Positions 4,982 through 11,400 of a stretch of 64,000 nucleotides of DNA are shown here, in pieces. The stretch is from Phormidesmis sp. (GTDB lineage Bacteria; Cyanobacteriota; Cyanobacteriia; Leptolyngbyales; Leptolyngbyaceae): assembly GCA_965248535.1 (NCBI GenBank), contig CBDFJR010000002.1, forward strand, positions 1,280,001-1,344,000, given 5' to 3'. A model generated the notes under the pieces. It was given only the letters and a program-made list of their open reading frames with translations, was not told the DNA's origin and did no database searches. Position 1 is the stretch's first letter; each line of letters starts with the position of its first letter. Both the position numbers and the translations under genes were made by a program.

Positions 4982-4991
4982 CTTAGCTTAA

Positions 4992-5621
4992 ATGGAACCT
5001 AAAGACTTTCTGATTTGTGACGGTGATCTACCCACAGCCTGGTTAGAGCGTTATTTAGAAACTGATGCGATCGCCGTTGACACTGAGACAATGGGCCTGT
5101 TGCCTCAGCGCGATCGCCTCTGTCTGGTGCAGTTGTGCGACGGCGACGATCGCGTGGCCGTCGTGCGAATTGCTCAAAAACAAACGGCTGCGCCCAATCT
5201 CAAACAGGTGCTAGAAGCCCCGGCGATTACCAAAATTTTTCACTTTGCGCGGTTTGACATCACCACCCTGCGCCACCATTTAGACATTCACGTTACGCCT
5301 TTGTTTTGTACTAAAATCGCCAGCAAACTAGCCCGCACCTACAGTCCTAAGCACGGCTTAAAAGATCTGGTTCAAGAACTAACGGGGGTAGAGCTAGACA
5401 AAAGCGCCCAAAGCTCAGACTGGGGAAACGCCGCCAATCTGTCAGAAACCCAACTGCGATACGCCGCCAACGATGTTCGTTATTTGATCAGCGCTCGTCA
5501 AAAACTAATCGCGATGCTAGAGCGAGAAGACCGTTTAGACCTGGCCGAACAGTGTTTTCAATGTCTACCAACGTTTAGCGAGTTAGATCTGATGCAGTAT
5601 CAGGGCATTTTTGAGCACTAG
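4992..5621 (+). CDS. rnd: Ribonuclease D-like DEDD 3'-5' exonuclease
   Basis: AVDTET, FHFARFD, SSDW and YAANDV motifs. Confidence 0.85.
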   Translation: MEPKDFLICDGDLPTAWLERYLETDAIAVDTETMGLLPQRDRLCLVQLCDGDDRVAVVRIAQKQTAAPNLKQVLEAPAITKIFHFARFDITTLRHHLDIHVTPLFCTKIASKLARTYSPKHGLKDLVQELTGVELDKSAQSSDWGNAANLSETQLRYAANDVRYLISARQKLIAMLEREDRLDLAEQCFQCLPTFSELDLMQYQGIFEH

Positions 5622-5659
5622 AATTGGGTGTACTTTAGGTGTGAAGACTTGCAACGTTA

Positions 5660-6355
5660 ATGCTGACTCCTGCAATCCCCAATCTTGACTTCCCGCAGCC
5701 TCAAACCTTCTCGGCGATTCTCTATGATCTCGATGGCACTCTGGCAAACACTGACCCGCTGCACTTTCAAGCGTGGCAAGAGTCTTTGCAGCCCTATGAC
5801 TTAGAGATTGACGAAACCTTTTATAAGCGCCACATTAGCGGGCGGTTAAACCCCGACATTGTGGCCGATTTGTTGCCTCAGTTGACCTGTGAAGCAAGTC
5901 AAGCATTTGTCGATCGTAAAGAATCCCGATTCCGATCGCTGGCTCTGCACCTCACTCCGATTGCAGGGTTGCCGCGGTTGCTAGATTGGGCCGCTCGCCG
6001 CCCGCTCAAGCAAGCTGTGGTCACCAATGCACCGGGCGACAATGCGCGATTTATGCTCAAAGCGCTCAACCTAGAATCTGTCTTTGATCACCTCGTGCTC
6101 TCTGAAGACTTAGCGGCTGGCAAACCCGATCCGCTTCCTTATCTCCATAGTTTGCAGCTATTTGGATTGCAGGCTAGTCAAGCGATCGCCTTTGAAGATT
6201 CTCCGTCAGGGGTGAGATCGGCCGTCGCTGCGGGAATTTTCACCATTGGCATTGCCTCGACTCAAGACCCAGCCGATCTCTATGAGGTGGGAGCCGCGAT
6301 CGTAGTGCCCGACTTTAACGCGCCTGACCTGTGGAAACGGTTAGAAGGTCTTTAG
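5660..6355 (+). CDS. HAD family phosphatase (beta-PGM/CbbY-like)
   Basis: YDLDGTL, VTNA, KPDP and FEDS motifs. Confidence 0.9.
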   Translation: MLTPAIPNLDFPQPQTFSAILYDLDGTLANTDPLHFQAWQESLQPYDLEIDETFYKRHISGRLNPDIVADLLPQLTCEASQAFVDRKESRFRSLALHLTPIAGLPRLLDWAARRPLKQAVVTNAPGDNARFMLKALNLESVFDHLVLSEDLAAGKPDPLPYLHSLQLFGLQASQAIAFEDSPSGVRSAVAAGIFTIGIASTQDPADLYEVGAAIVVPDFNAPDLWKRLEGL

Positions 6356-6489
6356 GATCGTGGATTAAATAACCTGTAAAAGTTCTCTGATTTTTCAGCG
6401 CCGGGATTTTAGCCCTTGTATCTTGAGAGTGTAGTAGAGGCTAAAGCCGACCGGAACGCAGCGACAAAGACGGGTGTACCGTAGCTCTT

Positions 6490-6670
6490 TAGGGCGATCC
6501 CATGCATGAATCCTCCCCCACTTGCCTACGGCGAAGTGGAGGTGTCTTTACGCGATAGACTGAGCTTGTGAGAGCCAGAGTATCGACAAAGTTACCGGGA
6601 TTCTCGGTGCATCCTGAGAACTTTTGCTCAGGAATACCTCACTGCCATTTCTGCGAGTGAGTTTGTAGAA
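6490..6670 (-). ncRNA. Predicted TnpB omega/reRNA scaffold plus flank-derived guide
   Basis: Hairpins CTCACT/AGTGAG (6638-6661), CCTGAG/CTCAGG (6613-6632) and the right-end stem overlap the tnpB 3' end; position inferred from known TnpB systems. Confidence 0.5.
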
Positions 6671-7690
6671 GTGCCACTGGTGAAGAAGGCTAACGCTTTA
6701 TTGTGGCTTGGTCTTGCGACTTTTCCGCTTCCACCGTAGGCGTAGGCGCTGGTGTATTTGGGAATCACGTCATCGACAGATCCCCCAACCTCTCAAAACT
6801 TCTCTTCCGTGAAGGTTGCGATAGCGCGATGCAGCCATCCATTTGATGTTGGCACATTTGCGGTAGAGAGATTTGCAGAAACCTTTGTACAGGTTTTTAG
6901 TCTTCTTCGCCCTGGCTCTAATCCTTTGCAAGCGTTGATCACGGCGGTCTATGTCTCTTCCAGGGTGAATGAATTCACGATGGATTACAGTACCACTTGA
7001 ATTGATAGCCGTCACCGTTGCCGTTGTATTGATGCCTAAATCGACACTGACCACAACATCTTTATTCCCATACTGCTTATCGGGTTTAACCTCAAACGGA
7101 ACGGATAGATAAATGCTGCGATGATTGACGATTAGACTCGGTGAGCATTGCGTGTGAGTCTCTAGACCATGCCGTTTTCCCTGTTTTCCTAATGGGATTT
7201 CTACCCAGATCCAATCATTGCGATGAAAGACTTTAATCTCTACAGAGTTGGCGTGATACTTGATGCACTGACCCTTGTAGAGTGAGGGGTACACACCCGC
7301 TTCAGCATTCAGTCTGGGCGGTTTTGCCTGACGATGCTTTCTAATTCCTGATTGCCACTGAGCATATCGGGTGACGAAAGACAAAACCTGCCCTAGACAA
7401 AACGCAATAGCGCTGCGGCGATAGTAACTGGGGAACTTGGGGAATCTTTTCTCAAAATAAGCAGCGTACTTGGGAGCCGAATTTTGAGCAGTTCGGTGCA
7501 TCAGTTTTTCGACCTGTGGCACTTGCTGCTTTTGAGACAGAGAGCTTAAGTGATCCCAGTTAACGTAAATCACTCCAGTCAGCGCCCGAACGTAGGCTCT
7601 AAACGCAATCACGGTTGAACTGAGCGCCGATTTTGCGTCAGCACTGGGTTGTAATTCCCATCTGTCAGTTCTCATGATTGCGTTTTTCAT
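6548..7690 (-). pseudogene. tnpB: TnpB RNA-guided nuclease, disrupted (two frameshifting deletions and an internal stop)
   Basis: RuvC-I VSVDLGIN retained; frame jumps at ~6843 (..CANI / GWLHR..) and ~6672 (..FTSG / FYKLTRRN..PVTLSILW); TGA at 6793-6795. Confidence 0.85.
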
Positions 7691-7692
7691 GA

Positions 7693-7971
7693 CTAGATAA
7701 TGCTCAGAAAAGGGTGATTGAGCGGAACTGTCCACTCATTAAAATCAAACGACTTCATCGGATAGGGTTGATAGATTCCCCCAGACGAACCCTGCCTAGC
7801 CGTCAAGCAAACGTGAGTACCGTTGCACCATTTCACCCAGTACACCCGACCCGTGAACCGCACAACCCGACTTGAATAGTAAATCTCTTGAGGCGTTGGT
7901 TTGGGTGCAAGCTGTGGAGACATGAAGCCCGATGCTGGACGCAATGCTGTCCTATTTTGAGTAGCAACCAT
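7693..7971 (-). CDS. Hypothetical 92-aa protein inside the IS; stop codon 2 nt before the tnpB ATG
   Basis: AAGGA RBS, then ATG at 7971 (MVATQNRTAL...PFLSII). Confidence 0.6.
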   Translation of the reverse strand: MVATQNRTALRPASGFMSPQLAPKPTPQEIYYSSRVVRFTGRVYWVKWCNGTHVCLTARQGSSGGIYQPYPMKSFDFNEWTVPLNHPFLSII

Positions 7972-8030
7972 TTGTTTGTCCTTAAAACAGCGAAGCCAGC
8001 GCCCCCGGGTGCAGCGCTGGAAGGAGTTAG

Positions 8031-8198
8031 TTATTTTTTGGCTTCTTCGACAGCCTCTTTCTGAATGTCTTCCCACTCCTTGATCTTTTGGTCAGACTCC
8101 TCTTCGGTCGCGGGTCGTTCGTTTCCGTGTTCTTCGGTCACAAACTTTCCGCCCTCTCCGACATAAGTTCTGGCGTTATCGTCTTTTGGATCTGGCAT
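8031..8198 (-). CDS. Hypothetical 55-aa acidic protein inside the IS (absent from the ORF track)
   Basis: AGGAG RBS, ATG at 8198: MPDPKDDNARTYVGEGGKFVTEEHGNERPATEEESDQKIKEWEDIQKEAVEEAKK; followed by hairpin CCAGCGC/GCGCTGG. Confidence 0.65.
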   Translation of the reverse strand: MPDPKDDNARTYVGEGGKFVTEEHGNERPATEEESDQKIKEWEDIQKEAVEEAKK

Positions 8199-8327
8199 GA
8201 TCAATTGGCTCCTAGTTCGGTATGTACGGACGTTGGGGAAGTCGTCTTAGTGGAGTGCTGAAATCACTTCACTGGGGCGCATCTCATCAGATGCTAGACT
8301 ATTAAAATAGTAACATAGTGTCTAGAG

Positions 8328-8747
8328 ATGTCAAGGAAGTTAAAGCATTACGCTCACGCTGTTTGCGGCATTCAGATTCATATAGTGTTTTGCACTAAGT
8401 ATCGTCATCCAGTGATCACGGAGGCGATAGAGTTACGACTGAAAGCAATCATAGAAAAACTCTGCACTACCCAAAAATGCGAATTGATTGAGGCGAAAGC
8501 AGACCTAGAAAAGCGTGACCACGTTCACTTACTTATAGAAATAGCGCCTGATATTGCCGTCTCAAAACTGGTTAATATTCTCAAAACAATCAGTAGCCGA
8601 GAACTTCGCAAGGAATTCGCAGAACACCTAAAGCCCTACTATTGGAAGCCTGTCTTTTGGAAGCGAGGGTATTGCGCCGTTTCGGCTGGCGGGGCATCCC
8701 TCGAAGCTCTAAAGCAGTACATAGAAAGTCAGGGATATGACGACTAG
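8328..8747 (+). CDS. tnpA: IS200/IS605 Y1 (HUH) transposase
   Basis: HIVFCTKYR, DHVHLL, LKTISSR, FWKRGY and YIESQ motifs. Confidence 0.95.
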   Translation: MSRKLKHYAHAVCGIQIHIVFCTKYRHPVITEAIELRLKAIIEKLCTTQKCELIEAKADLEKRDHVHLLIEIAPDIAVSKLVNILKTISSRELRKEFAEHLKPYYWKPVFWKRGYCAVSAGGASLEALKQYIESQGYDD

Positions 8748-8892
8748 CGTTAGGGGAGAGTGGCGACTCCGCTACTCTCCCTCGTGAAGCGGGGCGAAGC
8801 CCTCGCCTCGCCCTTGACCCCCACTTGCTCCATTTCGCACCTCGCTACGCTGGTACTGCATTGCGCGAAGGGGGGAATGCGGACGACCTTGT

Positions 8893-9963
8893 TCAACAAG
8901 CTTCCAGCAACTGCCCAGTCGATGATAGCGGGTGCCATAGGGTCAATTCGGGTAACGCCAAGCCAAACCCTTGCCCCAAGTCAACGCCCAACTCACGGCA
9001 AAACTCAATATCATTTGAGTCTTCTAAGCCTTCTGCTAAGACCACGATCTCCATCTCGTGGGCAAAATTCAGCAGACTTTTGATCATCACCTGCTTGAGA
9101 GCATAGCGACTACAGCCATGAACTAACCGCCGATCGAGCTTGATCACATCAGGGCGAAACTCCATGCAGTAATGGTCACTCGAAACGTTGCTGCCTAGGT
9201 CGTCGATCGCGAGACCAAACCCCCAAGCGCGAATCTGCTCGATCAGCCCCCGCAAAGCCGGGTAGCGCCCTAACGCCTCGATCTCGGTGAGTTCAAAAAC
9301 GATCTGTTCGGGACGCAAGCCCAAGTCTAAAACCTGCTGAAAGTTGCGCTCTAGGGAACGGGGGTCACGCCCGATCGCATTGGGCAATACATTCATAAAA
9401 AAAGTTGCCGAACTCTCGGCAGACCCGACTTTTGAAGCCAGTTGGGCCACCGCTTGAAGGCACGACGATCGGGCGAGATCGTCAAATTCACTGGTTAAGC
9501 TCATCGACAGAGCAGCATCGATCAATTGTTGACCGTTAAACTGTCCCTGGGCAGTTTTGGCCCGTGCTAAACACTCGTGGGCAACCACTTGCCCCGATGC
9601 CAGACTAAAAATTGGTTGATACTTAAAAAACAGGCGTTGTCTGGCCAAAACCTGCAAAAACCAGGCATTTTTGATCAGCAGAGTTGTGCTGCTTAAGAGT
9701 TGAGCATTCAAAAACTCGACCAACAGATCCCTCGACGCTAAAGACGAGCGAGTCACCAAAAATCGCACCGAGGACTGACTTGCCTCTGGGATTGCTTGAC
9801 TGATCTGAGAGAGCAGTTCTGAAGGCTGACTATCAATCACAACCAGGTAGAGAAGTTGGGGCACTAGAGCTACCTTCTCAAAGCCCAACCCATAGAGATA
9901 GGCTGCTGTGGCTTCACTACCGGGCTGAATAACCAGCTTCAACAAGTTATCTAACAGGTTCAT
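8893..9963 (-). CDS. EAL-domain c-di-GMP phosphodiesterase-like protein
   Basis: YQPI, ECLAR, FELTE, AIDDLG, IKLD, AEGLE and GQGF motifs. Confidence 0.9.
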   Translation of the reverse strand: MNLLDNLLKLVIQPGSEATAAYLYGLGFEKVALVPQLLYLVVIDSQPSELLSQISQAIPEASQSSVRFLVTRSSLASRDLLVEFLNAQLLSSTTLLIKNAWFLQVLARQRLFFKYQPIFSLASGQVVAHECLARAKTAQGQFNGQQLIDAALSMSLTSEFDDLARSSCLQAVAQLASKVGSAESSATFFMNVLPNAIGRDPRSLERNFQQVLDLGLRPEQIVFELTEIEALGRYPALRGLIEQIRAWGFGLAIDDLGSNVSSDHYCMEFRPDVIKLDRRLVHGCSRYALKQVMIKSLLNFAHEMEIVVLAEGLEDSNDIEFCRELGVDLGQGFGLALPELTLWHPLSSTGQLLEAC

Positions 9964-10344
9964 AGTCCGCACGATCACCAGCTTCCTTCTATCGCCAAGT
10001 TTACGAATTGTGCCTAAAAACTGGAGTTACTCAGCCTGCTGACTGGCGTGATTTAAATCACAAACGGGGGAAGAAAATCTAGACCACCCAACCCCTGTTT
10101 GTTGTAACCTACCACATTCACTACTGAGTTTTAAGCGAGTCAGCTAACTGATGAGGTTGGGTGTATTTAAATCATTGTCTATGAGGGCCACTAGCCCCCG
10201 ATTGTAAGAATTAAGAAGAAAGTCAGGGTTTCATCACAATTACTTGTTCCTTATCTAGAGCGAAGAGATCTTTGAGACTCTAGCGATCGTGTTTAATCGC
10301 TAAAGCAGGGTGGTATAACTCAAGTCTCATCCTCAATTCCTGTC

Positions 10345-11400
10345 ATGTCTGTTGTAACTAATCTTTCTCATCGAGACCTTGAAGACACAGTAGGCTCTTG
10401 GTCAAGCTTGCTCCAGCAATTGCTCGATCGTCAGTCACTCTCGCCAGCCCAAGCGACAGCCCTCATGCAAGGCTGGTTAGCAGAGGCGGTTCCCCCTGTT
10501 TTGTCGGGTGCCCTCTTGGTTGCCCTCCAGTCAAAAGGCGTTTCGGCAGCGGAATTGGCAGGAATGGCGCGAGTCTTGCAGGCGGCTCCAGGGGCGATTG
10601 CCACCACGCCATTGATTGACACCTGTGGCACCGGGGGCGATGGCGCATCGACGTTTAACATTTCGACCGCTGTGGCCTTTGTGGCGGCGGCGGCTGGCGT
10701 TCGGGTGGCAAAACATGGCAATCGATCGGCCTCCAGTCGAGTTGGGTCTGCTGACGTGCTCGAAGCGTTGGGCATTAATCTGGGTGCCCCATTTGAAAAG
10801 ATTCGCTCGGCGGTGGAAGCCGTGGGTATTACGTTTCTATTTGCTCCAGGCTGGCATCCTGCTTTAAAGGCGGTTGCCCCGATCCGGCAGATGCTGAAGG
10901 TGCGGACGGTGTTTAACTTGTTGGGGCCATTGGTAAACCCGCTGCGACCGAGCGGACAGGTGATCGGAGTGTTTGATGCAGGGCTGCTAGAGACGATCGC
11001 TCAGGCATTGAACGAACTGGGCACCCAGCGCGCGATCGTGCTTCACGGGCGAGAACGGTTAGATGAAGCTGGGCTAGGTGACCTGACTGATCTAGCGATC
11101 TTGTCCGATCGGCAAGTGCGCTTAACAACGATCGATCCCCAAGCCCTCGGACTCGCCCCTGCACCCCTAGAAGCCCTACGGGGCGGCGACGTGCAGACCA
11201 ATGCAGAAATTCTGCGCGCTGTCTTGCAAGGAAAAGGCACTCAAGCCCAACAGGATGTAGTCGCTCTGAATGCGGCCCTTGCCCTCCAAGTCGGAGAAGC
11301 CACCCCTGACTATGCTCAAGGACTGGCGATCGCCCAAGAAATCTTGTCTACTGGGGCAGCCTGGAACACCCTAGAACGCCTCATAAAATTTCTTCGCTAA
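10345..11400 (+). CDS. trpD: Anthranilate phosphoribosyltransferase
   Basis: [20 protein letters not shown] and [10 protein letters not shown] motifs. Confidence 0.97.

Follow-up and report, generated by a model that had tools for sequence, protein, structure and literature searches.

The 64,000-nucleotide stretch of the Phormidesmis sp. genome analysed here (assembly GCA_965248535.1, contig CBDFJR010000002.1, positions 1,280,001 to 1,344,000; hereafter the window) contains a whole IS605-type insertion sequence (IS) of 2,389 bp, located at 6506–8894 on the minus strand, that carries two small genes, orf55 and orf92, between tnpA and tnpB. Read on the minus strand, its order is left end (LE), tnpA directed toward LE, leader, orf55, hairpin, orf92, tnpB remnant and right end (RE). 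The extent of the element was determined by comparison of two copies and an empty site, and both small open reading frames (ORFs) were found inside the element ends (6506 and 8894), between the divergent tnpA and tnpB, as a first-pass annotation of this DNA had claimed.

Two small genes under selection lie between tnpA and tnpB

orf55 (8031–8198, minus strand) encodes an acidic protein of 55 amino acids, in which a central motif is conserved and the C-terminal part holds an acidic stretch; it has 17 D/E against 9 K/R residues and a pI of 4.5, and an AGGAG ribosome-binding site stands 10 nt before its ATG. orf92 (7693–7971, minus strand) encodes a basic, aromatic-rich protein of 92 amino acids (13 F/W/Y, pI 9.8), with AAGGA 7 nt before the ATG and a TAG stop (7695–7693) 2 nt from the ATG of tnpB (7690–7688). 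When orf92 relatives were aligned, the first ~25 amino acids were variable and the last ~65 strongly conserved. Just after the orf55 stop lies a GC hairpin (7996–8020, minus strand), which all six aligned relatives have kept; 90.7% of the cells are paired, and two of nine pairs show a compensatory change. A T-run follows 8–10 nt after this hairpin, which is possibly an internal attenuator or an RNA-stability element. The first-pass annotation had described both ORFs by the same composition, ribosome-binding sites and spacing, with a GC hairpin between them, and its description held in every one of these points. Pairwise dN/dS was 0.06–0.20 for orf55 and 0.10–0.40 for orf92, similar to tnpA (0.07–0.12) and to the open part of tnpB (0.09). 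Chance ORFs were ruled out by conservation together with dN/dS, and orf55 and orf92 are real genes under selection. The same annotation had named lack of conservation, lack of selection or a one-off insertion as outcomes that would speak against the genes; instead, dN/dS of 0.06–0.40 and 10 distinct loci were found.

On the other side of the interval, tnpA (8328–8747, plus strand) encodes an intact Y1 (HUH) transposase of 139 amino acids, supported by PF01797 (Y1_Tnp, E = 2.4e-39), by NF033573 (136.8 bits against a cutoff of 55) and by dN/dS, which was 0.07 against L049, a metagenome copy described below. A putative sigma-70-like promoter of the cargo operon (8307–8334, minus strand; TTGACA, 16 nt, TACTAT, TG-extended), matching the consensus at 10 of 12 positions, overlaps the first tnpA codons; it is a consensus match only, from a search that found two sites against 0.5 expected in shuffled sequences. 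Downstream of it, a conserved leader (5′ untranslated region) of ~90 nt (8199–8290, minus strand) is kept across lineages; it contains the ribosome-binding site, an invariant core, AAGACGACTTC, at 8248–8238, and a hairpin in which three pairs are compensatory. Rfam gave no match at E ≤ 1 on window 5500–10500. Among the 72 loci compared, the core was confined to loci of cargo-bearing elements. An order-level scan with a loose leader pattern gave nine new places, of which L075, L080, L081 and L085 were inspected; the places L073, L074 and L082–L084 were not inspected and may be chance matches. At L080 (G073:C38), L081 and L085 (G074), the leader motif precedes signal-peptide ORFs, with a gene for an XRE-type helix-turn-helix protein upstream where tnpA would be, and neither tnpA nor tnpB is present. 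The motif is absent from Rfam and may represent a cis-regulatory leader, so far undescribed, of mobile genes in Leptolyngbyales.

The element is a transposed unit with a decayed tnpB

The metagenome contig L049 (2,768 bp) carries the same unit, with 92% nucleotide identity over window 8904–6843 and 83% over 6840–6506, in flanks that are unrelated on both sides, and its similarity to the window ends at 6506. Contigs from three of four metagenome runs (X3, X6 and X21) leave the window sequence exactly at the same position, and the flanks of X3 and X6 differ. The junction on the tnpA side was placed at 8894/8895 by a three-way comparison with the empty site in L038 and L040, from two genomes of the same genus in which the element is missing beside the EAL-domain gene; the insertion swaps the TAA stop of this gene for a TGA built partly from element bases. 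RE (6506–6560, minus strand) has an imperfect hairpin in subterminal position, from which a short tail runs to the junction, and is near-identical in the window and L049 before the flanks become unrelated. In L049, the tnpB stop lies only 42 nt away from the end of RE. LE (8748–8894, minus strand) was defined by the junction comparison and by its outer part, which is like the sequence upstream of TnpB-only copies: window 8818–8897 is 76–79% identical to sites at C5:776684, C5:2307392 and C1:46855 of the same genome, and these matches to the outer 60–80 nt of LE sit ~140 nt upstream of three TnpB-only copies. The resemblance suggests the expected look of a shared left end. These three copies (LE-like matches at C5:776684–776765, C5:2307392–2307453 and C1:46855–46916) encode three identical TnpB proteins of 407 amino acids, which the intact window tnpA might mobilise in trans. 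The flanks show no target-site duplication, no terminal inverted repeats were found in the element, and no copies of the end sequences were found inside 6000–9200. The ends were set by sequence comparison. At the DNA level the element is single-copy in its own genome.

The tnpB gene of the window (6575–7690, minus strand) is a pseudogene, as seen from tblastn with an intact sister TnpB of the same genome (C2:711977–713389) and from a partial NF040570 match. Its first 306 codons are open (7690–6770) and are followed by an internal deletion, frameshifts and an in-frame stop. Residues 21–311 of the sister TnpB align in frame, 361–427 in a second frame with a stop and 444–465 in a third frame; NF040570 is matched only at profile positions 58–253 of 389, with 34 bits. 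The deletion is of 142 bp at 6842/6843, where L049 positions 2140–2281 have no window counterpart, and it removes ~50 residues, among which relatives have the RuvC-II glutamate. Contigs of all four metagenome runs have 140–145 extra letters at this site. L049 has an intact tnpB of 443 codons, whose product scores above the cutoff for PF01385 and reaches 94.6 bits for NF040570, just short of the cutoff (100); it shows the D, E and D motifs and no zinc-finger cysteines. tnpB is dead in the window but intact in metagenome copies. More widely, the TnpB lineage of L049 (1292–2623) and C2:711977–713389 (443–470 amino acids) has kept the RuvC D/E/D residues and lacks the zinc-finger cysteines. The genome itself is rich in TnpB, with 36 matches to the TnpB family model, 27 of them above the curated cutoff, against five tnpA matches.

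The pair recurs and is shared among different transposon backbones

Relatives of orf92 were found in 10 distinct loci, with orf55 or an orf55 remnant directly upstream in all 10, and seven of the 10 are linked to tnpA and/or tnpB. orf55 is intact in the window, L049, L050, L036, L037, L055 and L056, is cut short by a nonsense mutation at codon 41 in L034 and at codon 25 in L051, and is mostly deleted in L035; orf92 is open in L034, L051 and L035 despite the broken or deleted orf55. A divergent tnpA lies upstream in six loci, and the distance from the tnpA start to the orf55 start is 124–132 nt in all five intact ones. In every locus that keeps tnpB (the window, L049, L050, L037, L036 and L051; 6/6), tnpB or its remnant starts 0–3 nt past the orf92 stop or overlaps it. 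tnpB is intact in L049 and L050 and broken in the window, L036, L037 and L051; beside the broken tnpB, the pair is intact in the window, L036 and L037, and orf92 only in L051. In L035, hisG follows orf92. A Phormidesmis priestleyi ULC007 contig (L034) has an HNH endonuclease ORF (6635–6910; PF01844, E = 8e-14) directly after orf92, the position of tnpB elsewhere. In the Nostocales Brasilonema (L055) and Scytonema (L056), orf55 is followed by, and overlaps, an orf92-like fusion gene with an extra C-terminal domain, and within ~2 kb on either side we found no tnpA or tnpB, the neighbours being unrelated genes. L058 and L059 were considered as a further pair locus and not counted; their 92-aa ORF is not significantly like orf92 (hhalign E = 0.065). 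On these two contigs of one Leptolyngbyaceae metagenome-assembled genome, an orf55-like gene of 50 codons (~4990–5380; hhalign probability 95%) overlaps that ORF, and both times the flanks encode a DNA-polymerase exonuclease-domain protein and a 5′-3′ exonuclease, a replication-module-like context.

The pair was found between three TnpA lineages, 25–42% identical to one another, and three TnpB lineages. Between L050 and L036, orf55 is 87% and orf92 66% identical, TnpA is 25% identical and the TnpB parts are unalignable. Between the window and L050, identity is 61% for orf92, 54% for orf55 and 35% for TnpA, and the truncated window TnpB gives no alignment; the TnpBs of L049 and L050 are 26% identical over 163 amino acids. 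Nucleotide similarity between lineages is limited to window 8268–7687, from the leader to the tnpB ATG. In a neighbour-joining (NJ) tree, the cargo-bearing TnpAs fell into three groups that were interleaved with cargo-less TnpAs of the same genome. The sister IS on C2 of the same genome, whose TnpB is 46% identical to that of L049 and 42% to the open part of the window TnpB, has a tnpA–tnpB gap of 76 nt with neither pair nor leader, and three further tnpA/tnpB pairs of divergent orientation in this genome have gaps of ~70–150 nt. By these comparisons, the orf55/orf92 pair is a module and not a lineage trait.

The same slot holds other genes

L060 (in G063) has an L050-type tnpA and a TnpB that is 92% identical to that of L050. 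In its slot, from the same leader to the same tnpB start, a lipobox protein and a 104-aa ORF replace orf55 and orf92; similarity to L050 ends 8 nt into the first gene and returns at the stop of the second. L087 (L050 lineage, TnpA 86%) has a variant of the leader, an acidic 70-aa ORF whose first seven residues, MPDPRDS, are the same as in the orf55 homologue of L034, and a 145-aa ORF that ends 2 nt before tnpB. Signal-peptide ORFs occupy the slot in L086 (TnpA 80%) and L075, and L088–L090 of the same lineage (TnpA 66–67%) have no cargo. Within one TnpA lineage, the slot has at least three contents other than orf55/orf92. Homologues of the L060 pair, 33% and 32% identical, are direct neighbours in L080, a non-IS locus, where they follow the same leader and are separated from it by one other ORF. 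Because L080, L081 and L085 have the leader without tnpA or tnpB and L080 has homologues of the L060 pair, the leader and the gene pairs belong to a pool shared with non-IS contexts.

orf55 and orf92 belong to small families outside the annotated ones

Among 5.8 billion proteins, orf92 relatives formed six clusters, and a profile search gave 10 matches among 1.84 billion cluster representatives, one of which, the 1189-aa repeat protein P0018, was discarded as a likely spurious repeat match. orf92 was present in five of 90 genomes of the order, all of one genus (Phormidesmis), and in two of 401 sampled genomes of the class. For orf55, two close clusters were found, and a profile search raised this to 14. 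No family was assigned to either protein by Pfam, NCBIfam, PHROGs or PADLOC. The best score of orf92 in the protein atlas was 0.86, under the lead level; in a sequence search of the PDB its top match, 2p84_A (‘ORF041’, E = 0.002), stood amid antibody noise and was not used, and orf55 gave nothing below E = 0.16. Searches with the orf55 and orf92 alignments found no relative among viral contigs, and orf92 had no match in the plasmid collection.

The orf92 model, built from a 17-sequence alignment, is a small all-beta barrel with a pLDDT of 77 overall and ~90 in the core. Its core (residues ~25–92) superposes on the C-terminal Tudor domain of PcrA/UvrD (5dma_A), NusG KOW (1m1g_A), PsaE (6ijo_E), NdhS (6a7k_B) and CarD (4l5g_A), with the NusG/Spt5 KOW, PcrA/UvrD Tudor, PsaE, NdhS and CarD folds as the best structural neighbours; Z is 5.0–5.9, with an rmsd of 1.9–3.0 Å over 46–53 residues. 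The identity of 4–15% amounts to no sequence relation, and Z values in the range of a common arrangement imply no shared function. The best 50 fold matches to the full model are Tudor, KOW, PsaE and NdhS-type barrels and not known toxins, and Foldseek gave no match at E ≤ 0.001. orf92 is predicted to be a generic SH3/Tudor/KOW-like barrel. A prediction of the orf92–orf55 complex scored 0.01, which says nothing on binding either way.

The surroundings of the element

The gene order shared with other genomes of the genus is lost on either side of the element, at window 8885–8904 and at 6352, and the EAL gene and the gene for a HAD hydrolase on the other side were never adjacent in any relative searched. 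Parts of window 6349–6477, a sequence of ~130 nt that lies just outside RE and after the stop of the HAD-hydrolase gene, are repeated at a dozen other places on C1, C2 and C5; the repeats are 21–57 nt long with 86–100% identity and may be a small repeat or MITE-like family.

Discussion

Members of the IS605 type within the IS200/IS605 family, such as IS605, IS608 and ISDra2, have a Y1 TnpA and a divergently encoded TnpB between ends with subterminal hairpins. IS200/IS605 elements, from which compact genome editors derive, are treated as minimal and as consisting of no more than tnpA, tnpB and a guide RNA. Like IS605, IS608 and ISDra2, the window element has a Y1 TnpA and a divergent TnpB gene (a pseudogene here, intact in L049), a subterminal hairpin, no terminal inverted repeats and no evident target duplication. 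Unlike them, it is not limited to tnpA and tnpB: ~640 bp of extra coding DNA, made up of the leader, two genes and a hairpin, lie between the two, tnpB of the window type is the third cistron of an operon, the TnpBs of the lineage lack zinc-finger cysteines, and the window tnpB is dead. Rare TnpB transposons with cargo have been noted, and the branch named as an example is linked to a serine recombinase (Ser-3) (Altae-Tran et al., PNAS 2023, PMC10691335). Compared with that branch, the window element is Y1-linked, with a defined slot, a conserved leader and coupling to tnpB, and its cargo is common to three TnpA/TnpB lineages. In our literature search, neither a leader-framed slot nor these proteins turned up; similar loci may be listed in PMC10691335 (Fig. 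4 and supplements). Within this scope, a slot with portable small-gene pairs is undescribed.

We consider that orf55 and orf92 are very probably conserved, swappable cargo inside the IS, and the best explanation of the whole, which we hold to be probable, is an IS605-type element that uses the tnpA–tnpB interval as a cargo slot. We regard the pair as cargo, and not as demonstrated TnpB-specific factors, because the same slot is filled by other genes and because the pair occurs in Nostocales without transposon genes nearby. In the mechanism that we propose, the promoter overlapping the tnpA start would drive the structured ~90-nt leader and then orf55, the hairpin, orf92 and tnpB in a single transcript, in which the hairpin would lower or stabilise what reaches orf92–tnpB. 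Since tnpB stands directly after orf92, its product would come from the final cistron of the cargo operon, translated by coupling to orf92. The ends of IS605 elements and the tnpB 3′ region, which holds the guide RNA, must stay intact, and we infer that cargo always lies in the tnpA–tnpB interval for this reason; the interval would be the sole place where IS605 tolerates extra DNA. The L060/L050 breakpoints suggest that cargo is exchanged by recombination, which would be anchored at one side in the leader with the first few codons and at the other in the start of tnpB. As to function, our tentative best guess, held with low confidence, is a self-contained pair in which a basic SH3/Tudor-like barrel (orf92) would act on nucleic acid or the transcription machinery, masked or tuned by the acidic orf55, to the benefit of any carrier element and apart from TnpB catalysis.

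Several points weigh against this reading. In every IS-linked copy the pair is directly before tnpB, as a TnpB-linked function would also predict. The alternative cargo types were identified by visual inspection of ORF lists, with a base-by-base comparison for L060 only, and the recombination mechanism derives from one breakpoint pair (L060/L050). The count of genomic contexts was made without the distant orf92 relatives P0011, P0012 and P0014–P0017, the TnpA NJ tree has no support values, and the orf92 fold match is generic, its best Z of 5.9 being below the informative level of the tool.

The first-pass annotation had proposed a candidate undescribed TnpB-associated system, and its genes do recur in sister elements in an operon with tnpB; what was not supported is their dedication to TnpB. 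Were orf55 and orf92 accessory factors that have co-evolved with TnpB, acting for example as inhibitor or nucleic-acid mimic or regulating TnpB or its guide RNA, one could understand the position of the tnpB start directly after orf92 in six of six loci and three TnpB lineages, the strongly acidic and strongly basic character of the two products, and the SH3/Tudor/KOW-like model of orf92, a fold frequent in proteins that bind RNA, DNA or RNA polymerase. However, the TnpB partners are 26% identical or unalignable while the pair is 50–87% identical, the pair is intact and selected beside a broken tnpB (window, L036 and L037, with orf92 alone in L051), and the sister IS in the same genome has neither pair nor leader. 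Nor does the pair co-occur only with TnpB: it lives without tnpB in L055 and L056, and unrelated genes replace it in L060, L075, L086 and L087. We therefore judge dedicated TnpB factors to be improbable. An idea of similar low standing is that of a cassette-carrier sub-group of IS605 elements in cyanobacteria, in which small two-gene modules are swapped between unrelated tnpA/tnpB backbones, into a slot bounded by the conserved leader RNA and the start of tnpB, and orf55/orf92 are kept for acting on the life cycle of the element, for example by tuning read-through into tnpB and the guide RNA or by binding single-stranded ends.

A toxin–antitoxin-like addiction module, in which the acidic orf55 neutralises the basic orf92 and the carrier element is stabilised, would resemble type II systems in its small two-gene operon with an acidic product followed by a basic one, in the gene overlap seen in L055 and L056, in outlasting tnpB decay and in being portable between mobile contexts. 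It seems slightly less plausible still than dedicated TnpB factors: unlike type II systems, the pair has no Pfam, NCBIfam, PADLOC or PHROG match, no DNA-binding domain of an antitoxin can be recognised in orf55, the putative toxin orf92 is open where its partner is broken (L034, L051) or deleted (L035), and its best 50 fold matches are barrels rather than known toxins. By far the least credible account is that host genes were caught between an IS200-type (tnpA-only) and an IS1341-type (tnpB-only) insertion. The flanking tnpA and tnpB lineages do differ among loci, and the genome has many TnpB-only copies; against this, the window and L049 have the whole 2.4-kb unit in common at 83–92% identity in unrelated flanks, the 2-nt gap between orf92 and tnpB is too small for a left end, no end sequence is repeated inside 6000–9200, and the spacing of the tnpA and orf55 starts is 124–132 nt in five of five loci. 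Captured phage-like cargo had also been offered by the first-pass annotation; captured cargo fits best, and a phage origin was not shown, with no PHROG match and no relative on a viral contig.

A lineage with a cargo slot before tnpB would show how tiny IS605 elements ferry genes, and the slot would be a natural example of an operon built so that the output of TnpB depends on the cistrons before it and on a conserved leader. If the pair does act on the life cycle of the element, no TnpB/TnpA transposon would have had a pair of protein cofactors described before it. Several unannotated families of small proteins were obtained, namely orf55, orf92 and the alternative cargo pairs. The repeated capture of small-gene pairs by transposons suggests a role in mobile-element conflict or in element maintenance.

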